NCBI GenBank assembly: GCA_046705565.1
Contig: JBJKQI010000010.1
Location: forward strand, 1 to 39,861
Direction of reading: 5' to 3'
From: Candidatus Pacearchaeota archaeon
Lineage (GTDB): Archaea > Nanobdellota > Nanobdellia > Pacearchaeales > GW2011-AR1
Length of the DNA stretch: 39,861 bases
Shown here: positions 1,490 through 16,580 of the stretch, one piece after another
Layout of the letters: every line of letters begins with the position of its first letter
How positions within the stretch are numbered: position 1 is the first letter of the stretch
Notes under the pieces: generated by a model
The model's database searches: none
What the model saw: the letters and a program-made list of their open reading frames with translations, nothing else
Told to the model about the DNA's origin: nothing
Program-made: the position numbers and the translations under genes

Positions 1490-1909
1490 CTATTTAACAC
1501 CAAGTCTTTCAAGTTTGTCCTGAACGTGATTAAAAAGCGTTGAGGATATTAGGGGTTCATGAATAGCGGGATAAATTTCGCCGTCAAACTTTACTTTTCC
1601 AAGATAAGTGAAATTTCTTAAAATCTTCTTAACACCGTTAACTGAAAAACCATATTTTTTTGCAAGCTTGTTTAAACTTATCTTGCTGTTTTGAAATTCC
1701 ATAAATATATTCTCGACAACCTGAAAATTTGGAGCTTTCACTAATTTGTTTTCAATGATTTTATAGCCAAAAGGTGCACGCGATACAACATTCCCCCCAC
1801 TTGCTTTTTTCTTCATTCCATCTTTTAATTTCTCCTTTTCACGACGGAGTTCTTCAATTTCTTTTCTCAAGACTTCATTCTCTTTTTTTAAATTGTCAAG
1901 CTCACTCAT
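1490..1909 (-). CDS. Coiled-coil protein carrying a serine-recombinase 'recombinase' (DNA-binding) domain but no resolvase catalytic domain
   Basis: 139 aa. An N-terminal heptad-rich stretch (LKKENEVLRKEIEELRREKEKL) is followed by PFGYK...ISLNKLAKKYGF...VKKILRNFTYLGKV...HEPLIS..LFN.VQ, matching the pattern of the domain that follows the catalytic domain in large serine recombinases. Its start overlaps the stop of the upstream tyrosine recombinase gene by 8 nt. Confidence 0.6.
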   Translation of the reverse strand: MSELDNLKKENEVLRKEIEELRREKEKLKDGMKKKASGGNVVSRAPFGYKIIENKLVKAPNFQVVENIFMEFQNSKISLNKLAKKYGFSVNGVKKILRNFTYLGKVKFDGEIYPAIHEPLISSTLFNHVQDKLERLGVK

Positions 1910-2747
1910 TTTGTATCCTTAATGTATCAATAGGACTTTTAATTTTTTTAAGTGATTCGGCTGAGACATGGGTGTACATTTCTGTTGTTGAGAGAGACGA
2001 ATGTCCCAGAAGCTCCTGAATGAATCTTATATCTGTCCCATCTTCCAAGAGATGAGTTGCAAAGGAGTGTCTTAATGTGTGACAATGAACATCTTTTTTT
2101 ATTCCTGCCTTCTTGGAGGCATACTTTACAATCTTTTGCAAATTTCTCGAAGACATTTTTTTCCCGTCACGTCCCTCAAAAAGATATTTTCCACCACGCT
2201 CTTTTTGTTTTTCCGAATATTTTTTTAATCTTGAAAACAAAAATTTTGGAATATTAAAAACCCTGTCCTTTTTTCCTTTCGCCTGTCTTATGTGCCCGAT
2301 ACTCTCGTCGAAATCCAAATCATCTACTTTGAGTGTAGCAACTTCCGAGACACGCATGCCTGCCGCGTACATAAGCGAAATCATGAGTTTTGATTTTTTT
2401 GTATTAATTGCCCTAAATAAATCGAGAACCTCTTTTTTTGTTAAAACCGTCGGAATTTTTTTCTCACGTTTGGGTCTACGAATGTTTGCTGTTAAATCTT
2501 TTTTTAAAATTGCTGAAGTTGAAAATTTTAATGCAGCCAAAAACATAATTATTGAGATAGCTGACCTGTCCGAAAGATTTTGCGCAATGTAGAGCTTTAC
2601 GTCATCTTCGGTTGTATTATCCGGATCTTTTCTTATATACTCAAGAAAGTTTTCATTAAACTTTATATAATTTTTCAAAGTGTACTCTGAATTTTTCCCT
2701 ATCTTTAACTCTACCTCGAGCTTTTTCAAAAATTCCTCTTTATTCAT
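1902..2747 (-). CDS. Tyrosine recombinase, XerA/XerC/XerD-like
   Basis: 281 aa. The N-terminal SAM-like domain is followed by the catalytic-domain signature: ...AGMRVSEV..., HTLRHSFATHLLEDGTDIRFIQELLGHSSLSTTEMYTHV (R..H-x-x-R..H/W..Y). Confidence 0.9.
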   Translation of the reverse strand: MNKEEFLKKLEVELKIGKNSEYTLKNYIKFNENFLEYIRKDPDNTTEDDVKLYIAQNLSDRSAISIIMFLAALKFSTSAILKKDLTANIRRPKREKKIPTVLTKKEVLDLFRAINTKKSKLMISLMYAAGMRVSEVATLKVDDLDFDESIGHIRQAKGKKDRVFNIPKFLFSRLKKYSEKQKERGGKYLFEGRDGKKMSSRNLQKIVKYASKKAGIKKDVHCHTLRHSFATHLLEDGTDIRFIQELLGHSSLSTTEMYTHVSAESLKKIKSPIDTLRIQNE

Positions 2748-8158: not shown

Positions 8159-10951
8159 TTACTTATTTAGAACTTCTTTAAGGAATTTCCCTGTCCAGGA
8201 ATGCGGATTTTTGGCGACCTCTTCAGGAGTCCCAGCTGCAACAATTTCTCCTCCACCATCTCCTCCCTCAGGTCCAAGATCGATTATGTGGTCTGCTGAT
8301 TTTATAACGTCAAGATTATGTTCAATAACCACCATTGTGTTTCCTTTTTCAACTAATTCGTGCATCACTTCAAGAAGTTTTTTAACATCTTCGAAATGCA
8401 ACCCTGTTGTTGGTTCATCTAGAATGTATAAAGTTTTTCCGGTTGTTCGTTTACCAAGTTCTCTGGTTAATTTTATTCTTTGGCTCTCCCCCCCTGAAAG
8501 AGTTGTTGAGCTTTGCCCCAGTTTGATATAACCTAAACCTACTTTTACGAGAGTCTCAAGCTTTCTTTTTATTGAGGGAAGAAATTGAAAAAAGCCAAGA
8601 GCTTCCTCAGTTGACATATCCAAAACATCTGCAATTGATTTGTCCTTGTACTTTACTTCCAAAGTTTCCCGATTATACCTTTTTCCGTGGCATTCTTCAC
8701 ATTCAACATAAACATCTGGCAAGAAATTCATTTCTATTTTGATTGTACCATCCCCCTTACACTTTTCACATCTCCCTCCTTTAACATTAAAAGAAAACCT
8801 TCCCATCTTGTAACCCCTCATTTTTGCTTCTTTGGTCTCTGCAAAAACGTTTCTTATTTCGTCAAAAATCTTTGTGTAAGTTACGGGATTACTTCTCGGA
8901 GTTTTTCCAATGGGGGATTGATCAATAATTACAACCTTGTCAATGTAAGCATCCAGATAAATTCTGTCATGCTCTCCAGGAACTTCTTTGGAAAAGTTTA
9001 TTCTTTTTGCTAAACCCTTGTATAAAATTTCATTAACTAAAGTTGACTTTCCAGAGCCAGAAACACCCGTAACTAAATTTAAACATTGGGTTGGAATTTC
9101 AACATCTATATTTTTTAAGTTGTGCTCTCTTGCCCCTTTTATTTTTATTAGGGGCCCGGGTTCACGTCTAACTGTCGGCACGGAAATTTTTTCTTTTCCG
9201 CTTAAGTATTTTCCAGTTAAAGAGTTTTTATTTTTTTCAATCTCCTTTGGCGTCCCCTCTGCAACAATTTTTCCTCCATGAATTCCGGCACCCGGACCCA
9301 TATCAACAACATAGTCTGCTTCTCTAATGGTGTCTTCATCATGCTCAACTACAACGAGAGTATTGCCTAAATCTCTTAATTTGTGTAGAGTTTCAATTAA
9401 TTTTCTATTATCCCTTTGATGTAAACCAATCGAGGGTTCATCTAGAACGTAAAGAACCCCAGTTAAATTTGAACCTATTTGAGTTGCCAACCTGATTCTT
9501 TGGGCTTCTCCCCCTGAGAGGGTCCCGGCACTTCTTGAAAGTGTTAAGTAGTTAAGTCCAACGTTGTCTAAAAACTCCAACCTATCTTTAACTTCTTTTA
9601 AAATTTGCCTTGCAATTTCTTTTTCTTTTGCTGAAAGGTTTATTGAACTGAAGAATTCTCTTGCATCCTTAATTGAAAGGTCCGTTACATCAATAATTGA
9701 TTTATTATTTATTTTTACGGAGAGAATTTTTTCTTTTAACCTTTTTCCTTTACAAGTCGGGCAAACTGTTGCCCTCATGAATTTTTCGTATTCTCTTTTT
9801 CTGTATTCAGAGGTTGTTTCTTTGAAAAGTCTCTCTGCCTGGGGAATTATCCCTTCCCATCCATTTTCAAAATGCATTTTTGCTCCGCCGGGCCACTTTC
9901 CGTTTATTTCCTTACCCGATCCGTAGAGTAATGCATCCTTTTGCTTTTTGGTAAATTCTTTTATTGGAGTAAATAAATCGAAGCCAAAAGCTTTTCCGAC
10001 AACCGCAATTTGCTTTTGACGCCACGAGTTTTCCATTCGACCATAAATCTTTATTGCACCATCAATGATTGAAATGTTTTCGTCAGGGATTATCAAATTT
10101 GGATCAAACTCTATTTTTACTCCAAGTCCGTGGCAGTCTTCACAGGCACCAAAAGGGGAGTTGAATGAAAACATCCTTGGTTGAAGCTCTTCAAAAACAA
10201 TTCCACATTTGGGGCATGCTAGGTTTGAGGAAAAAAGTTTTTCCTGTTTTTCACCTTTTGCAACCAAGAGTCCTCCTGATTTTGAAAGTGCATTTTCAAC
10301 TGCTTCAGTTAAGCGGGATAAATCTTTTGACTCCACAGAATCAATGAAAAGTTCTATGTCATGCATTTTGTATTTTTCAAGGGAAATTTTTTCGTCTGTT
10401 CTAAAAACAATTCCATCAATTCTTACTTTTGAAAATCCTTCTTTGTTGTAATCTGAAATTAGCTTTTCGTATGTTCCCTTTTTTTGTCTCACAACAGGAG
10501 AGAGGATTGTGATTTCTCCCGGAAATTCTTTTTGAATGTTTTGAGCAATCATTTCAGGTGTTTGGGAAACTATTGCTTCATTGTGGGTTGGGCAATATGG
10601 GATTCCAATTCTGGCATAAAGAAGTCTTAAGTAGTCATAAATTTCGGTTACGGTTCCAACTGTTGAGCGAGGATTTTTAGATGTTGACTTTTGTTCTATT
10701 GAAATTGCCGGGCTTAGCCCTTCAATTGAATCTACATCTGGCTTGTCCATAACCCCTAAAAATTGTCTTGCATACGAGGAGAGGCTTTCAACATACCTTC
10801 TTTGCCCTTCGGCGTATAAAGTGTCAAAAGCAAGTGTTGACTTTCCTGATCCAGATAGCCCCGTTAGTACAACGAGTTTATCTTTCGGAATTGTGAGACT
10901 CACGTCTTTCAAATTGTGCTCTCTTGCTCCCTTAATCTTAATCTCTTTCAT
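8159..10951 (-). CDS. uvrA: Excinuclease ABC subunit A (UvrA)
   Basis: 930 aa with two ABC ATPase modules (GLSGSGKST and GVSGSGKST, LSGGEAQR/LSGGESQR signatures) and Zn modules (CPKC...CEDCHG, CPTCKG, CEKCKGDG...CEECHG). Confidence 0.97.
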   Translation of the reverse strand: MKEIKIKGAREHNLKDVSLTIPKDKLVVLTGLSGSGKSTLAFDTLYAEGQRRYVESLSSYARQFLGVMDKPDVDSIEGLSPAISIEQKSTSKNPRSTVGTVTEIYDYLRLLYARIGIPYCPTHNEAIVSQTPEMIAQNIQKEFPGEITILSPVVRQKKGTYEKLISDYNKEGFSKVRIDGIVFRTDEKISLEKYKMHDIELFIDSVESKDLSRLTEAVENALSKSGGLLVAKGEKQEKLFSSNLACPKCGIVFEELQPRMFSFNSPFGACEDCHGLGVKIEFDPNLIIPDENISIIDGAIKIYGRMENSWRQKQIAVVGKAFGFDLFTPIKEFTKKQKDALLYGSGKEINGKWPGGAKMHFENGWEGIIPQAERLFKETTSEYRKREYEKFMRATVCPTCKGKRLKEKILSVKINNKSIIDVTDLSIKDAREFFSSINLSAKEKEIARQILKEVKDRLEFLDNVGLNYLTLSRSAGTLSGGEAQRIRLATQIGSNLTGVLYVLDEPSIGLHQRDNRKLIETLHKLRDLGNTLVVVEHDEDTIREADYVVDMGPGAGIHGGKIVAEGTPKEIEKNKNSLTGKYLSGKEKISVPTVRREPGPLIKIKGAREHNLKNIDVEIPTQCLNLVTGVSGSGKSTLVNEILYKGLAKRINFSKEVPGEHDRIYLDAYIDKVVIIDQSPIGKTPRSNPVTYTKIFDEIRNVFAETKEAKMRGYKMGRFSFNVKGGRCEKCKGDGTIKIEMNFLPDVYVECEECHGKRYNRETLEVKYKDKSIADVLDMSTEEALGFFQFLPSIKRKLETLVKVGLGYIKLGQSSTTLSGGESQRIKLTRELGKRTTGKTLYILDEPTTGLHFEDVKKLLEVMHELVEKGNTMVVIEHNLDVIKSADHIIDLGPEGGDGGGEIVAAGTPEEVAKNPHSWTGKFLKEVLNK

Positions 10952-11237
10952 CGAGTAAAATAAAAGAAAAATTGCTTTTAAGGTTTTGTGGAACTAGTGA
11001 GAATTAAATATTTTCTTATTCAAAAAGTTATTCGGTGAGCAACTTTTCTTTTTATGTCCTTGGTCGACTTTGTTCACTTAGGTTCCTTTTGGCAAATTGA
11101 AATTCACATTCCTAACTCTCACTTTTACTTTTTTAATAGGTAAATTTTTTTGAATTTGGATTCGGACAATAATGTTTATTTGTTTTTCTTTGATTTTTTA
11201 GGGCATACAAAGTATGGCAAAAAGGCTAATTTTACCT

Positions 11238-11444
11238 AGTTCGTATAATATATCTTGTACGAACTTTTTGTGTATAAACACAAAATATGCGTTCAGAGAG
11301 GCTAAAAATGGATTTATTCGATGCTTTTTTAGGAGACCTCCCAATTTTATTTTAATTTTTTATTTGATTATAAGAACTTTTTGTGTGTGAAAGTATTACT
11401 TGGGAAATGAGTTACTTTATTTAAAAACTCTTGTGGAGACCCCC
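11238..11444 (+). repeat. Two degenerate tandem modules, TA(C/A)GAACTTTTTGTGT ... GGAGACC(T/C)CC
   Basis: TACGAACTTTTTGTGT at 11258-11273 and TAAGAACTTTTTGTGT at 11371-11386 are 15/16 identical. Each is followed about 50-60 nt later by GGAGACCTCCC (11332-11342) or GGAGACCCCC (11435-11444). AGTTCGTA (11238-11245) is the inverted complement of TACGAACT (11258-11265). Confidence 0.6.
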
Positions 11445-11950
11445 TTTTGATTATGCGAATTATTTCAGTGGTTTAAATTGATTTTTTGCTAGGGGCGTTG
11501 GAAAGAAAAGTATGCACTTATTTTTTCTTAGATTATCCGAATTATTTTAAGGGGTTTGCTTAAAATTTGTTAATTTCTTCAGTAATATCTCATTTTCTAG
11601 AAAATTTTGGTCTATTAGGGGTTATATTTAGCCCCTTTCTATTTGGGTGAAACTTTTACCTTGCTTTTTTGAAATTTATTTTATCTAAAAAAAGACTAAA
11701 AATTGCCTACAAAAGACCCCAAAATTTTTAGAAAACTTTCATTAACTTAGGATACCTTTGTTTAAAAAGGCGAAATTTTAGGTTGTTTAAGTTAATTTTT
11801 ATTAGATTTCACCTTTTATTTTCAAAGCTAAACGGCTGTCCAAACAATACAAACACCCTTTTACCGAATATAATGCTGGCAAATGACACCATTGTTTTAC
11901 GCTTAATTCTTTGGGTGTTGGACGGTGTTTATGATTGTTTAAGCCCGTCC

Positions 11951-11997
11951 AAACAGCTGTTTTTAGTCCATTTTTTATTCCTATGCTGTTTAAACAG
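11951..11997. promoter_or_regulatory. Two perfect 12-bp palindromes upstream of the 12121 gene (candidate operators)
   Basis: AAACAGCTGTTT (11951-11962) and CTGTTTAAACAG (11986-11997). Each is followed by GTCCATTTTT(T)ATT (11966-11979 and 12007-12019). Confidence 0.45.
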
Positions 11998-12120
11998 TTA
12001 TTTTTGGTCCATTTTTATTATTAAAATTGGTCTTGAAGAACCCCTTGAAAAAAGGCAAAAATTACCTTTTTCTCGTCAATAAAAGAAAAAGTTTTTAAAG
12101 CAAACATACCTAAAAATAAT

Positions 12121-12759
12121 ATGTTTGGATTTTTCAAGTCAAAAAACAAAATTGAAGAGGTGCAAAAAGAGACCAAATTTGGTTTTGAGGCAGTTAAAAA
12201 GGATATTTTATCTGTTGGTGAGTGGATTAAACACCTTGATTCTGAAAAAAAAGTTCACAGAAATGAGATAAATGAGATAAAAGAGGATTTATCGTCGCTA
12301 AAAGAAGACTTTGAAGAATTAAAAAATATGGTTTCTGTGGTTGTTGATTTAAACACAAACAGCCGTTTAAACAAGCCGTTTAAAACAGATAAGTGGCTGT
12401 TGAATAAACAAACGCCTGTTTATGATGTTCAAACAGATGTTCAAACAGATGTTCAAACACCAAATTTAAGCAGTTTTTCAGTTACCGAAAGAGCAATTCT
12501 TTTAGTACTCTTAAATACTGACATGAAATTGAGCTATGAGGATCTTGCTGCAATGCTAAATAAAGAAAAATCTACAATAAGGGGTCAAATAAACTCCATA
12601 AAATCGAAAAGTGAGAGCTTAATAGAGGAAATAATAGAGAAAAATGGTAAAAAAAGGATATATGTACCTGAAAAAATGAAAGAAAAGATACTCAAAAAGC
12701 AAAAAGTGAGAGTAAAAGAGTCAAAAAAAGACAATAAAAAGAAGAAAAATGAGAGTTAA
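12121..12759 (+). CDS. Coiled-coil protein with a VQTD repeat and a C-terminal winged-helix-like domain (paralog A)
   Basis: 212 aa with heptad-rich N-terminal half (EINEIKEDLSSLKEDFEELKNMV), VQTDVQTDVQT, then ERAILLVLLNTDMKLSYEDLAAMLNKEKSTIRGQINSIKSK, which looks like a helix-turn-helix, and a lysine-rich tail. Confidence 0.7.
   Translation: MFGFFKSKNKIEEVQKETKFGFEAVKKDILSVGEWIKHLDSEKKVHRNEINEIKEDLSSLKEDFEELKNMVSVVVDLNTNSRLNKPFKTDKWLLNKQTPVYDVQTDVQTDVQTPNLSSFSVTERAILLVLLNTDMKLSYEDLAAMLNKEKSTIRGQINSIKSKSESLIEEIIEKNGKKRIYVPEKMKEKILKKQKVRVKESKKDNKKKKNES
12424..12459 (+). repeat. Perfect tandem repeat (GATGTTCAAACA) x3, in frame
   Basis: Read directly: three identical 12-nt units encoding D-V-Q-T x3 within paralog A. 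Confidence 0.95.
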
Positions 12760-12984
12760 AGACAAAAAAATTAAAAAAAGTCCAAAAGTGAGGCTTCTAT
12801 GCAAGGCATAGGATTCAAAACAGAAGGATTTTTATAAAAAAGTGAGGGATTTTAAGGATTTCCCAAGCTAAAAAAGAAAAAGAGGTAAAAACAAAAGATA
12901 AGTAAAAGCATGCTTTGTCGTCGGGAAAGGAAGGGTTGTGTTAGCTGAAGAAAGAAAGTTATTCGTTGTACAGAATTTCTCTCC

Positions 12985-13017: not shown

Positions 13018-13710
13018 CTAGAGACTTACTAGTGTTAAGATCGTATTAAGGGATGCAACCTTTTTAAGAGAAGAAGAAATATTTAACTGAATTTCTTTGT
13101 TGTTTATTTTGTTTTTCTCGACGGGAATTCCTTTAATTATGAGCCTTCTAACATAATCACGAAGGGAGCTTTCAGATAATCCGAGAAGGCCTGAGAGGGT
13201 TTTATAATCCGAATGACCTCTCTCTTCATCGAGCTGATAAATTGCACTGAAAACAGTTATTTCTTGCTTAGTTAACCTTTTGAATTTTAATCTTATCTCT
13301 TTTTTTAACGAATCAAGAGAATCTAAGGTATTTATTGCATCCTGAAAAAGGGTTTCTGGGAGATTCTTGGGGCTTTCTCTATATGAAAAACCCCCTTTTT
13401 GGCTTAAAATGTCTGTTTGTCTGTTTGTCTGTTTGTCTGTCTGAACCCCTTCATTTCCATTGGAAATACCCTCTTTTTGGTCATTTAAAGGCTTAAAAAT
13501 GTGTCTATTTGTCTGAATATTGGGCTCCTGCGTCTGAAAAGATTCCCTTTGTGTGGGGATTTCTTTTTCCTCTATAATTCTCATTCTTTTGTCTAAATTA
13601 TAAAAGGCGTTTCCCATTTCTACAATTAGTTCGTCAAACCTTGAGAGCTCCTCCCTTAATTCATTTATTTCTTCTTTTACCTTCAAGAAAGCTCCTTTTA
13701 TATTATCCAT
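13018..13710 (-). CDS. Coiled-coil protein with a QTD/QTN repeat and a C-terminal winged-helix-like domain (paralog B)
   Basis: Same architecture as 12121..12759: VKEEINELREELSRFDELIVEM, GVQTDKQTNRQTD, then LTKQEITVFSAIYQLDEERGHSDYKTLSGLLGLSESSLRDYVRRLIIKG. I prefer the ATG at 13710 (MDNIKGAF...); the track extends to a GTG at 13761. Confidence 0.7.
   Translation of the reverse strand: MDNIKGAFLKVKEEINELREELSRFDELIVEMGNAFYNLDKRMRIIEEKEIPTQRESFQTQEPNIQTNRHIFKPLNDQKEGISNGNEGVQTDKQTNRQTDILSQKGGFSYRESPKNLPETLFQDAINTLDSLDSLKKEIRLKFKRLTKQEITVFSAIYQLDEERGHSDYKTLSGLLGLSESSLRDYVRRLIIKGIPVEKNKINNKEIQLNISSSLKKVASLNTILTLVSL
13411..13442 (-). repeat. 8-nt tandem repeat (GTCTGTTT) x3 plus one imperfect unit, inside the coding sequence
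   Basis: Read directly: GTCTGTTT GTCTGTTT GTCTGTTT GTCTGTCT. The sense strand reads ...ACAAACAG... The unit length is not a multiple of 3. Confidence 0.95.
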
Positions 13711-13763
13711 AAAAAAAGTAAGTTTATTCACTTTAAAAAAATTAAGATAATTAAAAACCACAA

Positions 13764-14816: not shown

Positions 14817-15018
14817 GCAATTGTTAAAGATAATTTATTTATAAATTTATCTCTATTTGAAAAGGATTTTTAGAGTTTCTAAAATTAAAAGACAAATTTG
14901 AAGGAAGGTAAATAAATTATTAATCGTATAAATGTTATAACTTAAAAATTAATTAAAAATTATATAAACAAAAGAAGTCTGCTAAGTTCTCCTTGTAGTT
15001 TGAATAAAAAAGGTGTCT

Positions 15019-15049
15019 GGGGTGTGTCACACCTTTATTTCTTTTGGAA
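15019..15049 (-). repeat. ORB-like element 1 (inverted orientation)
   Basis: The reverse complement reads TTCCAAAAGAAATAAAGGTGTGACACACCCC. Its first 21 nt differ from ORB-2 at one position, and it ends in a C-run (a G-string on the other strand). Confidence 0.7.
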
Positions 15050-15214
15050 AATAAAAATTTACTGATTTTTGTTTTTTTGTATTTTTATTTTATTTAAAAA
15101 AATTTATATTATATATTATATATTTATATAATCTTTTTATAATATAATAATAAATTAATAACCTATTTAGAAAGATAAATTTATAGTTTTATATAAACTT
15201 GAACTTATACGTCT
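15050..15214. other. AT-rich candidate duplex-unwinding element
   Basis: I counted 9 G/C in the 120 nt at 15061-15180. It contains TA-rich runs such as ATATTATATATTATATATTTATATAAT. Confidence 0.6.
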
Positions 15215-15240
15215 TTCCATAAGAAATAAAGGTGTATTTC
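15215..15240 (+). repeat. ORB-like element 2
   Basis: TTCCATAAGAAATAAAGGTGTATTTC. Confidence 0.65.
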
Positions 15241-15312
15241 TTTTTTAGTAGTCATAATCTTTTATATACACTTTTCATTTTTTTCCGTTGAGGGTTTCGG
15301 GGACTTCATTTT

Positions 15313-15340
15313 TTCCATAAGAAATAGACGTCTCACCCCC
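15313..15340 (+). repeat. ORB-like element 3
   Basis: TTCCATAAGAAATAGACGTCTCACCCCC. Its first 14 nt are identical to ORB-2, and its C-run resembles that of ORB-1. It ends 22 nt upstream of the orc1 ATG. Confidence 0.7.
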
Positions 15341-15362
15341 TTTAAAATAAAAACAAGAAAAG

Positions 15363-16580
15363 ATGGAAAGCGAACTAGACAAAATTTTTGATTCGTTTGA
15401 TAAGAATAATATCTTCAAAGATAAATCTCTTTTACAATCAAACTATAAACCAGAAAATATTCCCCACAGAGATCATGAGATAAAACAAATTGCTTCTATT
15501 CTTGCGCCGGTCTTAAGGGGTGAAAAGACCAGTAATCTCTTTTTGTACGGAAATACAGGCACGGGCAAAACTCTTTCTATCTTAAAGGTACAAGAAGCTT
15601 TAGAGAAAAGAATGCAGAAAAATGAAAATATTGATTTTGAACTTAGGATTCAATACCTCAATTGTAAATTAAAGCAAGTTGCAGATACTGAATATAGAAT
15701 TCTTGCGGAGATTATACGGCAATTGGGCGGAGAAGTTCCTGCAACGGGGTTACCCACCCAGGCAGTTTATAGTAAGTTTATTGAAATTGTTGAAGAAAAG
15801 AAGCAGCTGGTTGTTCTAATTCTTGATGAAGTAGACCAACTTGTGAATAAAATTTCAAATAATTTTTTATATAATCTTACCAGATTAAACTTCGAATTAT
15901 CCAAGTCACAGATTTCTCTTGTAGGAATTTCAAATGATTTGACTTTTTTAGATAATGTTGATCCACGTGTGAAAAGTTCCCTTTCTGAGGAAGAGATTGT
16001 TTTCTCACCATATAATGCTTTACAAATTCAAGATATTCTCCTTAAGAGGATTGGAGGGGCTTTCAAAGAAGGAGTCTTAGAAGAAGGGGTCGTTTCAAAG
16101 TGTGCGGCTTATGCAGCGAGGGAATCTGGGGACGCGAGACGTGCATTGGATTTATTAAGAGTTGCCGCAGAATTAGCTGAGAGAGAAGGAGCAAAGAAAG
16201 TTAAAGTTGAGCATATAGATAAGGCAAAACAGAAAATCGAGAAAGATAAAATTATAGATGTGATTAGTAATCATCCAAAACAGTTTCAGATGGTCCTTAA
16301 TTCAATTATTTCACTTTATGAAGAGAAAAGAGGGAGCCCTTTTTTTACCGGGGAAGTTTACTTGAATTACCAAAAGGCATGTAATCTTTACAAAGTCGAA
16401 CCTCTTACCCAACGTAGAGTAGGAGACATTATTCAGGAGTTTGATATGCTTGGGATAATAAATGTTCGTGTTATTTCTAAGGGAAGGGGGGGAAGAATGA
16501 GGGAAATACGACTCATACTTCCAGAAGCGGTAATGGAAAAATCTAAAGAAATTTTAACCTCTACATTAAATTATGCTTAA
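15363..16580 (+). CDS. orc1: Orc1/Cdc6 replication initiator
   Basis: 405 aa with AAA+ Walker A (YGNTGTGKT), Walker B (ILDEVD), sensor region (GDARRALDLLRVAAE) and a C-terminal winged helix (TQRRVGDIIQEFDMLGII). Confidence 0.95.
   Translation: MESELDKIFDSFDKNNIFKDKSLLQSNYKPENIPHRDHEIKQIASILAPVLRGEKTSNLFLYGNTGTGKTLSILKVQEALEKRMQKNENIDFELRIQYLNCKLKQVADTEYRILAEIIRQLGGEVPATGLPTQAVYSKFIEIVEEKKQLVVLILDEVDQLVNKISNNFLYNLTRLNFELSKSQISLVGISNDLTFLDNVDPRVKSSLSEEEIVFSPYNALQIQDILLKRIGGAFKEGVLEEGVVSKCAAYAARESGDARRALDLLRVAAELAEREGAKKVKVEHIDKAKQKIEKDKIIDVISNHPKQFQMVLNSIISLYEEKRGSPFFTGEVYLNYQKACNLYKVEPLTQRRVGDIIQEFDMLGIINVRVISKGRGGRMREIRLILPEAVMEKSKEILTSTLNYA

Follow-up and report, generated by a model that had tools for sequence, protein, structure and literature searches.

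A probable Xer recombination locus, with a dif-type site and a row of half-sites, in a long intergenic region near the predicted replication origin of a Pacearchaeales archaeon

A 39,861-nucleotide (nt) stretch of Candidatus Pacearchaeota archaeon assembly GCA_046705565.1 (contig JBJKQI010000010.1, positions 1 to 39,861; hereafter the window) contains a gap of 1169 nt (10952–12120) between uvrA and the gene of an uncharacterised 212-amino acid (aa) protein, here called p212. Since the median intergenic gap in this assembly is 60 nt, the question arises as to what occupies such a long region. The results of this study suggest that the gap is probably an Xer recombination locus near the origin, in which a dif site for the tyrosine recombinase XerA is accompanied by phased accessory sites.

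The gap had been described as gene-free in an initial annotation made from the sequence alone, and it proved to be so, both here and in relatives. uvrA (8159–10951, minus strand), in which the Pfam UvrA domains were matched, is the final gene of a uvrB-uvrC-uvrA run, and p212 (12121–12759) lies on the plus strand. The sole long frame in the gap is a TTG-started open reading frame (ORF) of 99 aa (11783–12082) with no match in Pfam. The gaps of four congeners (G008, G015, G006 and G009) held no ATG-started frame of 45 aa or more and no counterpart of the 99-aa ORF was found anywhere else; a conserved ORF was rejected, as neither this ORF nor the ATG-started ORFs of 58 and 69 aa had a counterpart in the relatives. 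When the 99-aa ORF is discounted, the gap is the largest ORF-free stretch of the 682-kb assembly (79 contigs, 86% complete, GC content ca. 34%), the next ones measuring 916, 904 and 875 nt.

For comparison, relatives numbered G001 to G040 were used, the congener assemblies among them being 74–93% complete. At least nine genomes of the same genus have the layout in which uvrA and p212 diverge from a long gap; its length was 1113–1287 nt in six congeners, ca. 2.15 kb in G007 and G016, and 3.5 kb in G021. In G007 and G016, the additional length includes a 245-aa membrane-protein gene at the uvrA end, between uvrA and the box termed D below, and the module from D to p212 is still intact; from its sequence, without a family search, this protein may be an undecaprenyl-diphosphatase (UppP). 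BLAST and MAFFT alignments revealed short conserved islands within otherwise strongly diverged DNA. Their order was constant across the genus: box D, box B1, box C, an inverted pair, a row of half-sites, box B2, TGTTTAAAC repeats and a TATA-like box. In the entire assembly, there is a single copy of each of the boxes D, B1 and C and of the inverted pair. The features that carry the argument are the following.

11238–11265, no strand: candidate dif core, with left arm AGTTCGTATAA, spacer TATATC and right arm TTGTACGAACT (11-6-11)
11205–11237, no strand: conserved left flank of dif, motif ATACAAAGTAT followed by a small palindrome AAGG-N-CCT (AAAAAGGCTAATTTTACCT)
11366–11382, plus strand: half-site A1, GATTATAAGAACT then TTTT, oriented like the right dif arm
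11449–11465, plus strand: half-site A2, GATTATGCGAATT then ATTT, 83 nt past A1
11531–11547, plus strand: half-site A3, GATTATCCGAATT then ATTT, 82 nt past A2
1902–2747, minus strand: xerA, tyrosine recombinase gene and presumed partner of dif, 8.5 kb from dif
2767–2791, no strand: xerA promoter, in which half-site GATTATACGAACT (2767–2779) abuts a TATA box (2782–2791; TTATTTAAAC on the strand of the gene)

The element at 11238–11265 had been noted as an 8-bp inverted pair with a 12-nt spacer. The pair is present and conserved in the genus, and it is better read as a 28-bp site of two 11-bp arms around a 6-bp spacer, the format that bacterial and archaeal Xer sites share (PMC2958812, PMC8371274). 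Ten of the 11 positions of its inverted arms match; sites of this format with at least 10 arm matches were expected 0.09 times in the region according to 300 first-order Markov simulations, and one was seen. The core is single-copy in the assembly. A pattern retaining only the outer and inner bases of the arms (TTCG-N3-AA-N6-TT-N3-CGAA) was found once per genome in 18 of the 22 congeners and once in six other genera, while the reversed pattern, used as a control, matched in 2 of the 22; one extra match in G015 looks like chance. Every dif match sits between or beside xerA and/or p212, and the 11-6-11 format was retained in all relatives, in which BLAST matches spanned positions 11194–11268 of the window. 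Compared with the experimentally confirmed dif of Bacillus subtilis, the site was identical at 20 of 28 positions on the plus strand and 21 of 28 on the reverse complement, and with Escherichia coli dif at 18 of 28, both references (taken from PMC3025954) being bacterial. The 28-bp element is a strong candidate for the site of XerA, and we consider this assignment very probable.

A conserved neighbourhood made up of xerA, dif, p212 and orc1 was seen across nine families. The stretch from xerA to dif varied in length from under 0.1 to ca. 21 kb in these families and from ca. 2 to 21 kb among the congeners, and it looks like a hot spot of gene insertion; in the window, it holds the gene of a protein with an RNA recognition motif, a LysE gene and uvrBCA. 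An arrangement in which xerA and p212 diverge from dif (xerA <- dif -> p212) was observed in G025, G031, G036 and G039, within 0.8–1.6 kb in three of them (G025, G036 and G039). In G024, dif lies beside xerA and p212 is elsewhere. The same is probably true of G019, where dif and xerA share one contig and p212 is on another.

The XerA protein encoded in the window scored 231.8 bits against the NCBIfam equivalog NF040815 (recomb_XerA_Arch; cut-off 220) and was the strongest PF00589 match of the genome. It could be aligned over its full length with Pyrococcus abyssi XerA (4A8E), and the catalytic Arg, the HxxR motif and the Tyr were all conserved. On the sense strand of xerA, 21–33 nt upstream of the start, the sequence TTATTTAAAC-AA-AGTTCGTATAA was found, that is, a TATA box followed by the exact left arm of dif. 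In several families of the order, the arm AGTTCGYATAA likewise follows the TATA box of xerA or of an operon promoter in front of a HAD-like gene and xerA. Wherever xerA has a promoter of its own, TATA box and arm stood there, namely in seven congeners (G005, G010, G015, G022, G003, G019 and G013) and in eight genomes of other families (G029, G037, G031, G036, G026, G028, G025 and G039). In G008, G009 and G006, where the HAD-like gene precedes xerA, they were shifted to the operon promoter. The promoter arm co-varies with the left arm of dif: AGTTCGTATAA is present at both places in the genome of the window (G000), and AGTTCGATTAA at both in G024. This co-variation is the best indication that dif and the xerA promoter are read by a single protein, and linkage together with precedent points to XerA as this reader. 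We infer that XerA binds the dif arm and the promoter arm. With this arm directly behind its TATA box, xerA is probably repressed by its own product. A 139-aa ORF (1490–1909, minus strand) overlapping the end of xerA encodes a coiled coil followed by a PF07508 'Recombinase' DNA-binding domain (30.3 bits, cut-off 21.1), and its product could be a partner of XerA or could read one of the boxes.

To the right of the core, on the p212 side, the arm is repeated. The exact A-box pattern GATTATNNGAAYT had five copies in 682 kb, of which three are in the gap, one is in the xerA promoter and one is elsewhere, and none was found in the reversed genome; in five relatives, 19 of 31 exact half-site matches fell within the gap and xerA promoter loci. 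There were 3–5 half-sites right of the core in 12 or more congeners, and in the 13 congeners with at least two downstream boxes these lay on the p212 side of dif, nearly all of them oriented as the right arm; G007 and G016 each have one minus-strand half-site. From base frequencies, ca. 0.03 chance matches per strand are estimated in 400 nt, and four boxes per genome were seen. Orthologous boxes were 86% identical, a value inflated by the choice of boxes by pattern, and the DNA between them was 58% identical, equal to the 57% expected after shuffling. The distances from box to box fell into classes of 21–22, 53, 71–74, 82–84, 92, 103 and 141–145 nt; at 10.3 bp per turn, distances of 21, 53, 73, 83, 92, 103 and 143 nt correspond to 2.06, 5.15, 7.09, 8.06, 8.93, 10.0 and 13.9 helical turns. 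As the boxes and their spacing are kept while the spacers are randomised, selection appears to act on the boxes, and decay of integration scars does not account for them. Outside the genus, one extra direct arm ca. 30 nt from the core was present in G025 and G039, and none in G036 and G038. Comparison of these genomes with the rows of the genus suggests that a core with direct arms is a theme of the whole order, which has been expanded in this genus.

Based on these results, the following working of the locus is proposed. Two XerA protomers would bind the arms of dif, cut at the borders of the spacer and swap strands between two copies of the site, and this exchange would turn a chromosome dimer into monomers. 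A1–A3 would recruit further XerA protomers to one face of the DNA, and the resulting higher-order complex would control recombination at the core, most plausibly in favour of intramolecular resolution. The single arm in the promoter would let XerA repress xerA. We infer the cleavage of dif by XerA and the roles of the array and p212 from sequence. That the row of half-sites is an accessory device setting directionality is possible, and we hold it with slightly less than even confidence. A more elaborate proposal is that these DPANN archaea, lacking SMC (structural maintenance of chromosomes) protein and FtsK, have a self-contained, plasmid-style system of dimer resolution by the origin, in which the phased half-sites would set the directionality of the dif core and wrap DNA as a topological filter bracketed by palindromic p212 sites, with p212 as an architectural helper; this is put forward tentatively, and we regard it as rather doubtful. 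The organisms have genomes of 0.5–0.9 Mb. In none of the 23 congeneric genomes searched (74–93% complete) was an SMC hinge detected, and 10 of 14 control genomes were positive. For FtsK_SpoIIIE, there was only a borderline P-loop match of 24.9 bits, within a 1052-aa frame on contig C3.

Several observations weigh against reading the gap as an Xer locus. The core lies 4 kb from the predicted oriC and not near the terminus as in Thermococcales and bacteria. Its inner motif in the window is TAA-N6-TTG, while the hallmark of archaeal dif is TAA-N6-TTA (PMC11840125); the genus of the window has TAA or CAA, N6 and TTG, and the canonical motif occurs in other families (G025, G024 and G023). Against B. 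subtilis dif, the site is the top 28-mer of the assembly by a single position, and several others reach 20 of 28. Since the assembly is 86% complete, a second copy of dif is possible. Two positions of the half-sites are free, so that some different protein could bind them, the first half-site follows dif at a variable distance that is out of phase, and the phasing of the spacing classes (Rayleigh p of ca. 0.004 on seven classes) was obtained with a period picked within 10.2–10.5 bp and from related genomes that are not independent samples. In addition, boxes B, C and D have no assigned protein. These boxes and the other features of the gap are listed below.

12121–12759, plus strand: p212, uncharacterised coiled-coil and winged-helix protein of 212 aa, linked to xerA and dif order-wide
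11027–11037, plus strand: D box, GTTATTCGGTG, single copy, conserved in the genus, resembling a degenerate half-site
11073–11086, plus strand: B1 box, TTCACTTAGGTTCC, half of a palindrome ACTTAGG-N-CCTAAGT, left of dif
11113–11126, plus strand: C box, TAACTCTCACTTTT, single copy, nearly invariant in the genus, always 39–40 nt after B1
11745–11756, plus strand: B2 box, ACTTAGGATACC, right of the half-site array
11617–11636, plus strand: hairpin AGGGGTTA-TATT-TAGCCCCT, followed by a T-rich tail
11830–12000, no strand: TGTTTAAAC or AAAC-N4-GTTT repeats, with ca. 11-nt phasing in relatives, just upstream of the p212 promoter
12091–12100, plus strand: TATA-like box of p212, GTTTTTAAAG, ca. 26 nt upstream of the ATG, conserved columns in the alignment, putative function
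10974–10983, minus strand: TATA-like box of uvrA, CCTTAAAAGC, ca. 27 nt upstream of the ATG, putative function

In the p212 protein, an N-terminal coiled coil and VQT repeats are combined with a winged helix at the C-terminus. Profile searches of Pfam, NCBIfam and PDB found no family for it, only coiled-coil and weak winged-helix matches, and none of its 2300 homologues, labelled Nanoarchaeota or Pacearchaeota, has a name. To its right follow two more helix-turn-helix (HTH) genes, a PRC-barrel gene, a gap of 546 nt and orc1/cdc6 (15363–16580), beyond which are two long ORFs (531 and 1152 aa). The distance between p212 and orc1 was 2.5–16 kb in at least 22 relatives, and dif adjoins p212 in most. 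The B boxes, which were seen in palindromic form in G005, G015, G021 and G023, flank dif in the genus and in G023. In G024, where dif lies elsewhere, they remain with p212; for this reason, the B boxes and the TGTTTAAAC repeats are more likely to be sites of p212 or its paralogue (13018–13761), and they probably bind one of these proteins. The TGTTTAAAC repeats are probably an operator array for p212 or the paralogue. The AAAC-N4-GTTT palindrome upstream of the p212 TATA box is also found in G036, G025 and G023; these other families (loci L040, L078 and L034, respectively) have retained the CTGTTTAAACAG palindrome of the p212 promoter region, and in G014 (locus L066) two further copies stand immediately upstream of xerA. 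The outer 40 nt at either end of the gap would represent the promoters of uvrA and p212, and the distance of ca. 26 nt between the TATA-like box and the ATG implies a leaderless mRNA for p212.

Since the initial annotation had offered unannotated non-coding RNAs and a second iteron-type origin or plasmid-derived replicon remnant as explanations, both were weighed. A small RNA, with the boxes as promoter or terminator elements or as RNA motifs, might be suspected from the two terminator-like plus-strand hairpins at 11238–11265 and 11617–11636, from the TATA-like A/T stretches that follow the B boxes and from the hairpins of other sequence that some relatives carry past the last half-site. However, Rfam gave no gathering-score match in the window or eight homologous loci (only noise in E-value mode), and the tRNA/tmRNA scan found none. 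RNAalifold found no consensus structure in the conserved left part from D through B1 to C, with an energy of 0 on both strands. A hairpin or cruciform after each half-site was rejected, as the folding energy was −3.20 kcal/mol against −3.23 kcal/mol in random windows (p = 0.39). At position 7 of the stem of the 28-bp element, the two sides vary independently (U-A, U-G, C-A and C-G were all observed), which indicates two degenerate protein half-sites and not a base pair. The GC content of the gap (29%) is under the coding average, and T runs that would stop archaeal RNA polymerase come directly after the C box. With these observations, a small RNA is very unlikely, and the conserved elements of the gap most likely behave like protein-binding DNA, not like an RNA or a protein gene. 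A further suggestion, that of a complex regulatory region, holds to that extent, although the Xer/dif identity was not part of it. As for a replication origin, the phased direct repeats, which would be iterons, the position 3.2 kb from orc1 at a point of divergent transcription and the cumulative GC-skew minimum at 10–11 kb (1-kb resolution) are in its favour; the last is not independent evidence, because the switch of gene strand coincides with it. Archaeal oriC regions do share phased short repeats and a long intergenic region near orc1 with this locus; unlike them, the gap has no origin recognition box (ORB)-like match to the TTCCA-N-GAAA core and no AT-rich DNA unwinding element (DUE), the lowest GC content over 80 nt being 21%. 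Instead, the gap directly upstream of orc1 (14817–15362) contains an ORB-like TTTCCAAAAGAAATA on the minus strand at 15036 and, on the plus strand, TTTCCATAAGAAATA twice (15214 and 15312), and the inverted boxes at 15036 and 15214 bracket ca. 160 nt of 3–9% GC. A textbook archaeal oriC of the order ORB(−)/DUE/ORB(+)/ORB(+) is predicted there, at 15036–15330. Moreover, the repeat in the uvrA–p212 gap is the arm of a recombinase site and the putative operator of xerA, and no Rep-like gene is adjacent; an origin or replicon remnant is thus extremely improbable.

Two other explanations concern the same elements as the Xer reading. The row of half-sites could be debris left by Xer-exploiting elements (IMEX, pdif-like cassettes) that integrated repeatedly at dif and left one-armed hybrids pushed outward. 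Serial integration would place the half-sites all on one side of dif and nearly all in one orientation, as observed, and both the xerA–dif interval of the congeners and the genes at its edge vary (putative UppP in G007 and G016, extra ORFs in G021). In IMEX and pdif cassette arrays, however, dif-like sites bound gene modules, whereas the units between the half-sites here are 73–84 nt long without an ORF, and no half-site was found at any gene junction between xerA and dif in the window. The spacings on whole helical turns and the preservation of the boxes among randomised spacers also speak against scars, and we consider debris unlikely. Alternatively, the gap may be an ordinary, large divergent promoter and operator region of uvrA and p212, filled with winged-helix operators and without involvement of XerA. 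This would suit the TATA-like boxes 26–27 nt upstream of both start codons, the TGTTTAAAC palindromes that abut the p212 TATA box in several families, the B-box palindromes that follow p212 in G024 and the three adjacent HTH genes. It is at odds with G019 and G024, in which the 28-bp site and half-sites follow xerA and not p212, and with the co-varying arm that serves as a putative operator at the xerA promoter; in addition, ca. 1.1 kb of phased sites is far beyond the need of two leaderless promoters. We therefore regard this explanation as quite unlikely, and an Xer recombination locus remains the preferred reading.

As an Xer locus, the gap can be compared with known systems. Archaeal XerA/dif is established (PMC2958812), and the systems of P. 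abyssi, Thermococcus kodakarensis, Thermoplasma acidophilum and Sulfolobus are like this one in having one XerA-type recombinase and a single 28-bp 11-6-11 site per chromosome, situated in an unusually large intergenic region with conserved flanks (Cortez 2010, PMC2958812; Badel 2021, PMC8371274; Yamaura 2025, PMC11840125). For P. abyssi XerA, both fusion and resolution have been reported. Thermococcales dif is bordered by conserved sequence and by inverted repeats on its flanks (PMC2958812). In T. kodakarensis, dif is placed in an intergenic region of 1.9 kb, the remainder of which is functional as an SMC-dependent boundary needing TrmBL2 (PMC11840125); large empty surroundings of dif thus have a precedent, and a boundary role of this type is unlikely here, since no SMC hinge was found in the genus. 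The linkage of the site to xerA is as in haloarchaea, where dif-like sites are upstream of the xerA operon (PMC11840125), and Sulfolobus and haloarchaeal dif are not at the terminus (PMC2958812, PMC11840125). Unlike the known archaeal systems, the present locus has its site 4 kb from oriC, 3–5 extra phased single arms, an arm in the xerA promoter and an order-wide linkage with p212. We found no description of dif in this DPANN order, no paper among those searched with both "DPANN" and "XerA", and no description of the origin-proximal position, the phased row of arms, the promoter arm or the p212 linkage.

The closest parallel to the row of half-sites is offered by the irs-TnpI systems of Tn4430 and Tn5401, in which an inverted core is likewise accompanied by direct repeats of the same motif on one side. 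The Tn4430 irs is compact, ca. 116 bp; in contrast, the repeats here are 73–84 bp apart over 300–450 bp, and would belong to a chromosomal XerA and not to a transposon resolvase. According to PMC7157771, which cites Vanhooff 2006, the irs of Tn4430 consists of a core IR1-IR2 and the direct repeats DR1 and DR2 of the same TnpI-binding motif, and TnpI regulates its own expression via irs. DR1 and DR2 serve TnpI in the regulatory manner proposed here for A1–A3. Order-wide, the site described here also adjoins the recombinase gene and overlaps its promoter. In the plasmid multimer-resolution sites cer and psi (XerCD) and in TnpS/TnpT-rst, accessory DNA of a few hundred bp adjoins the core and makes the reaction selective for resolution without FtsK, as may be the case here. 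The rst site of Tn4651-type transposons lies between the recombinase gene tnpS and the divergent helper gene tnpT (PMC7157771), a layout that mirrors that of xerA, dif and p212 in G025, G031, G036 and G039. The accessory proteins of these systems (PepA, ArgR, ArcA and TnpT), however, are unrelated to p212, and their accessory DNA does not consist of recombinase half-sites.

How XerA of archaea without FtsK gains its bias toward dimer resolution has been stated as an open question (PMC8371274). The present locus offers a concrete arrangement for such selectivity, namely a core with phased copies of its arm, a putatively autoregulatory promoter arm and a neighbouring gene for a DNA-binding protein; if true, the plasmid-style system would answer this question. 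The locus would also mean that dif can adjoin oriC across a whole archaeal order, contrary to the terminus-centred model. For annotators, the reading gives a reason for the largest empty stretch of these tightly packed genomes, and the succession xerA - dif - p212 - orc1 would mark the origin region of Pacearchaeales-type assemblies.

The remaining symmetries reported for the gap were compared with the same Markov simulations. Perfect palindromes of 12 nt numbered 3 against 0.9 expected (p of ca. 0.04), and perfect 8-nt inverted repeats with a 3–14-nt spacer 4 against 1.7 (p of ca. 0.14). Of 18-nt inverted repeats with 15 or more matches, within 150 nt, there were 4 where 1.6 were expected (p of ca. 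0.16). From composition alone, most of the listed symmetries are unremarkable, and conservation separates signal from noise. The perfect palindrome TTTTCTAGAAAA is present at 11593–11604 but absent from all 17 relatives checked; as a decayed fourth half-site it was rejected, since no convincing alignment was obtained and it is out of phase. The inverted match between 11593–11610 and 11718–11735 exists as well, over 18 nt at 83%, but the count of such repeats is at chance level, and the enclosed hairpin (11617–11636) is present with a sequence that is not conserved.

Two degenerate modules of ca. 110 nt each had also been proposed. Their heads (11258–11273 and 11371–11386) and GGAGACCYCC tails (11332–11341 and 11435–11444) are present, but the modules measure 85 and 74 nt with a period of 113 nt. 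The TAMGAACTTTTT heads, which correspond to the right arm of dif and the first of the three single arms, are conserved across the genus, whereas the tails were absent from all 17 relatives checked. Within 11250–11448, head (TAMGAACTTTTTGTGT) and tail occur in the segment beside the right dif arm and again in the first half-site unit. Because the tail was found in no relative, a recent local duplication of ca. 110 nt in this lineage is suggested.

Near-copies of two boxes were seen to the right of the gap. Inverted near-copies of the C box (AAAGTGAGAGT...) occur in the 3' part of p212 (12600–12759), at positions −151 and −56 relative to the stop codon, with a third one at that codon. The two inner ones are conserved in most of 11 orthologues, and the copy at −56 encodes a KVRVK motif; coding constraint on KVRVK explains the copies at least as well as would terminal inverted repeats formed with the C box, and they may also be internal binding sites. 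A D-box-like GTTATTCGTT is located at 12959–12968, in the 258-nt convergent gap between p212 and its paralogue.

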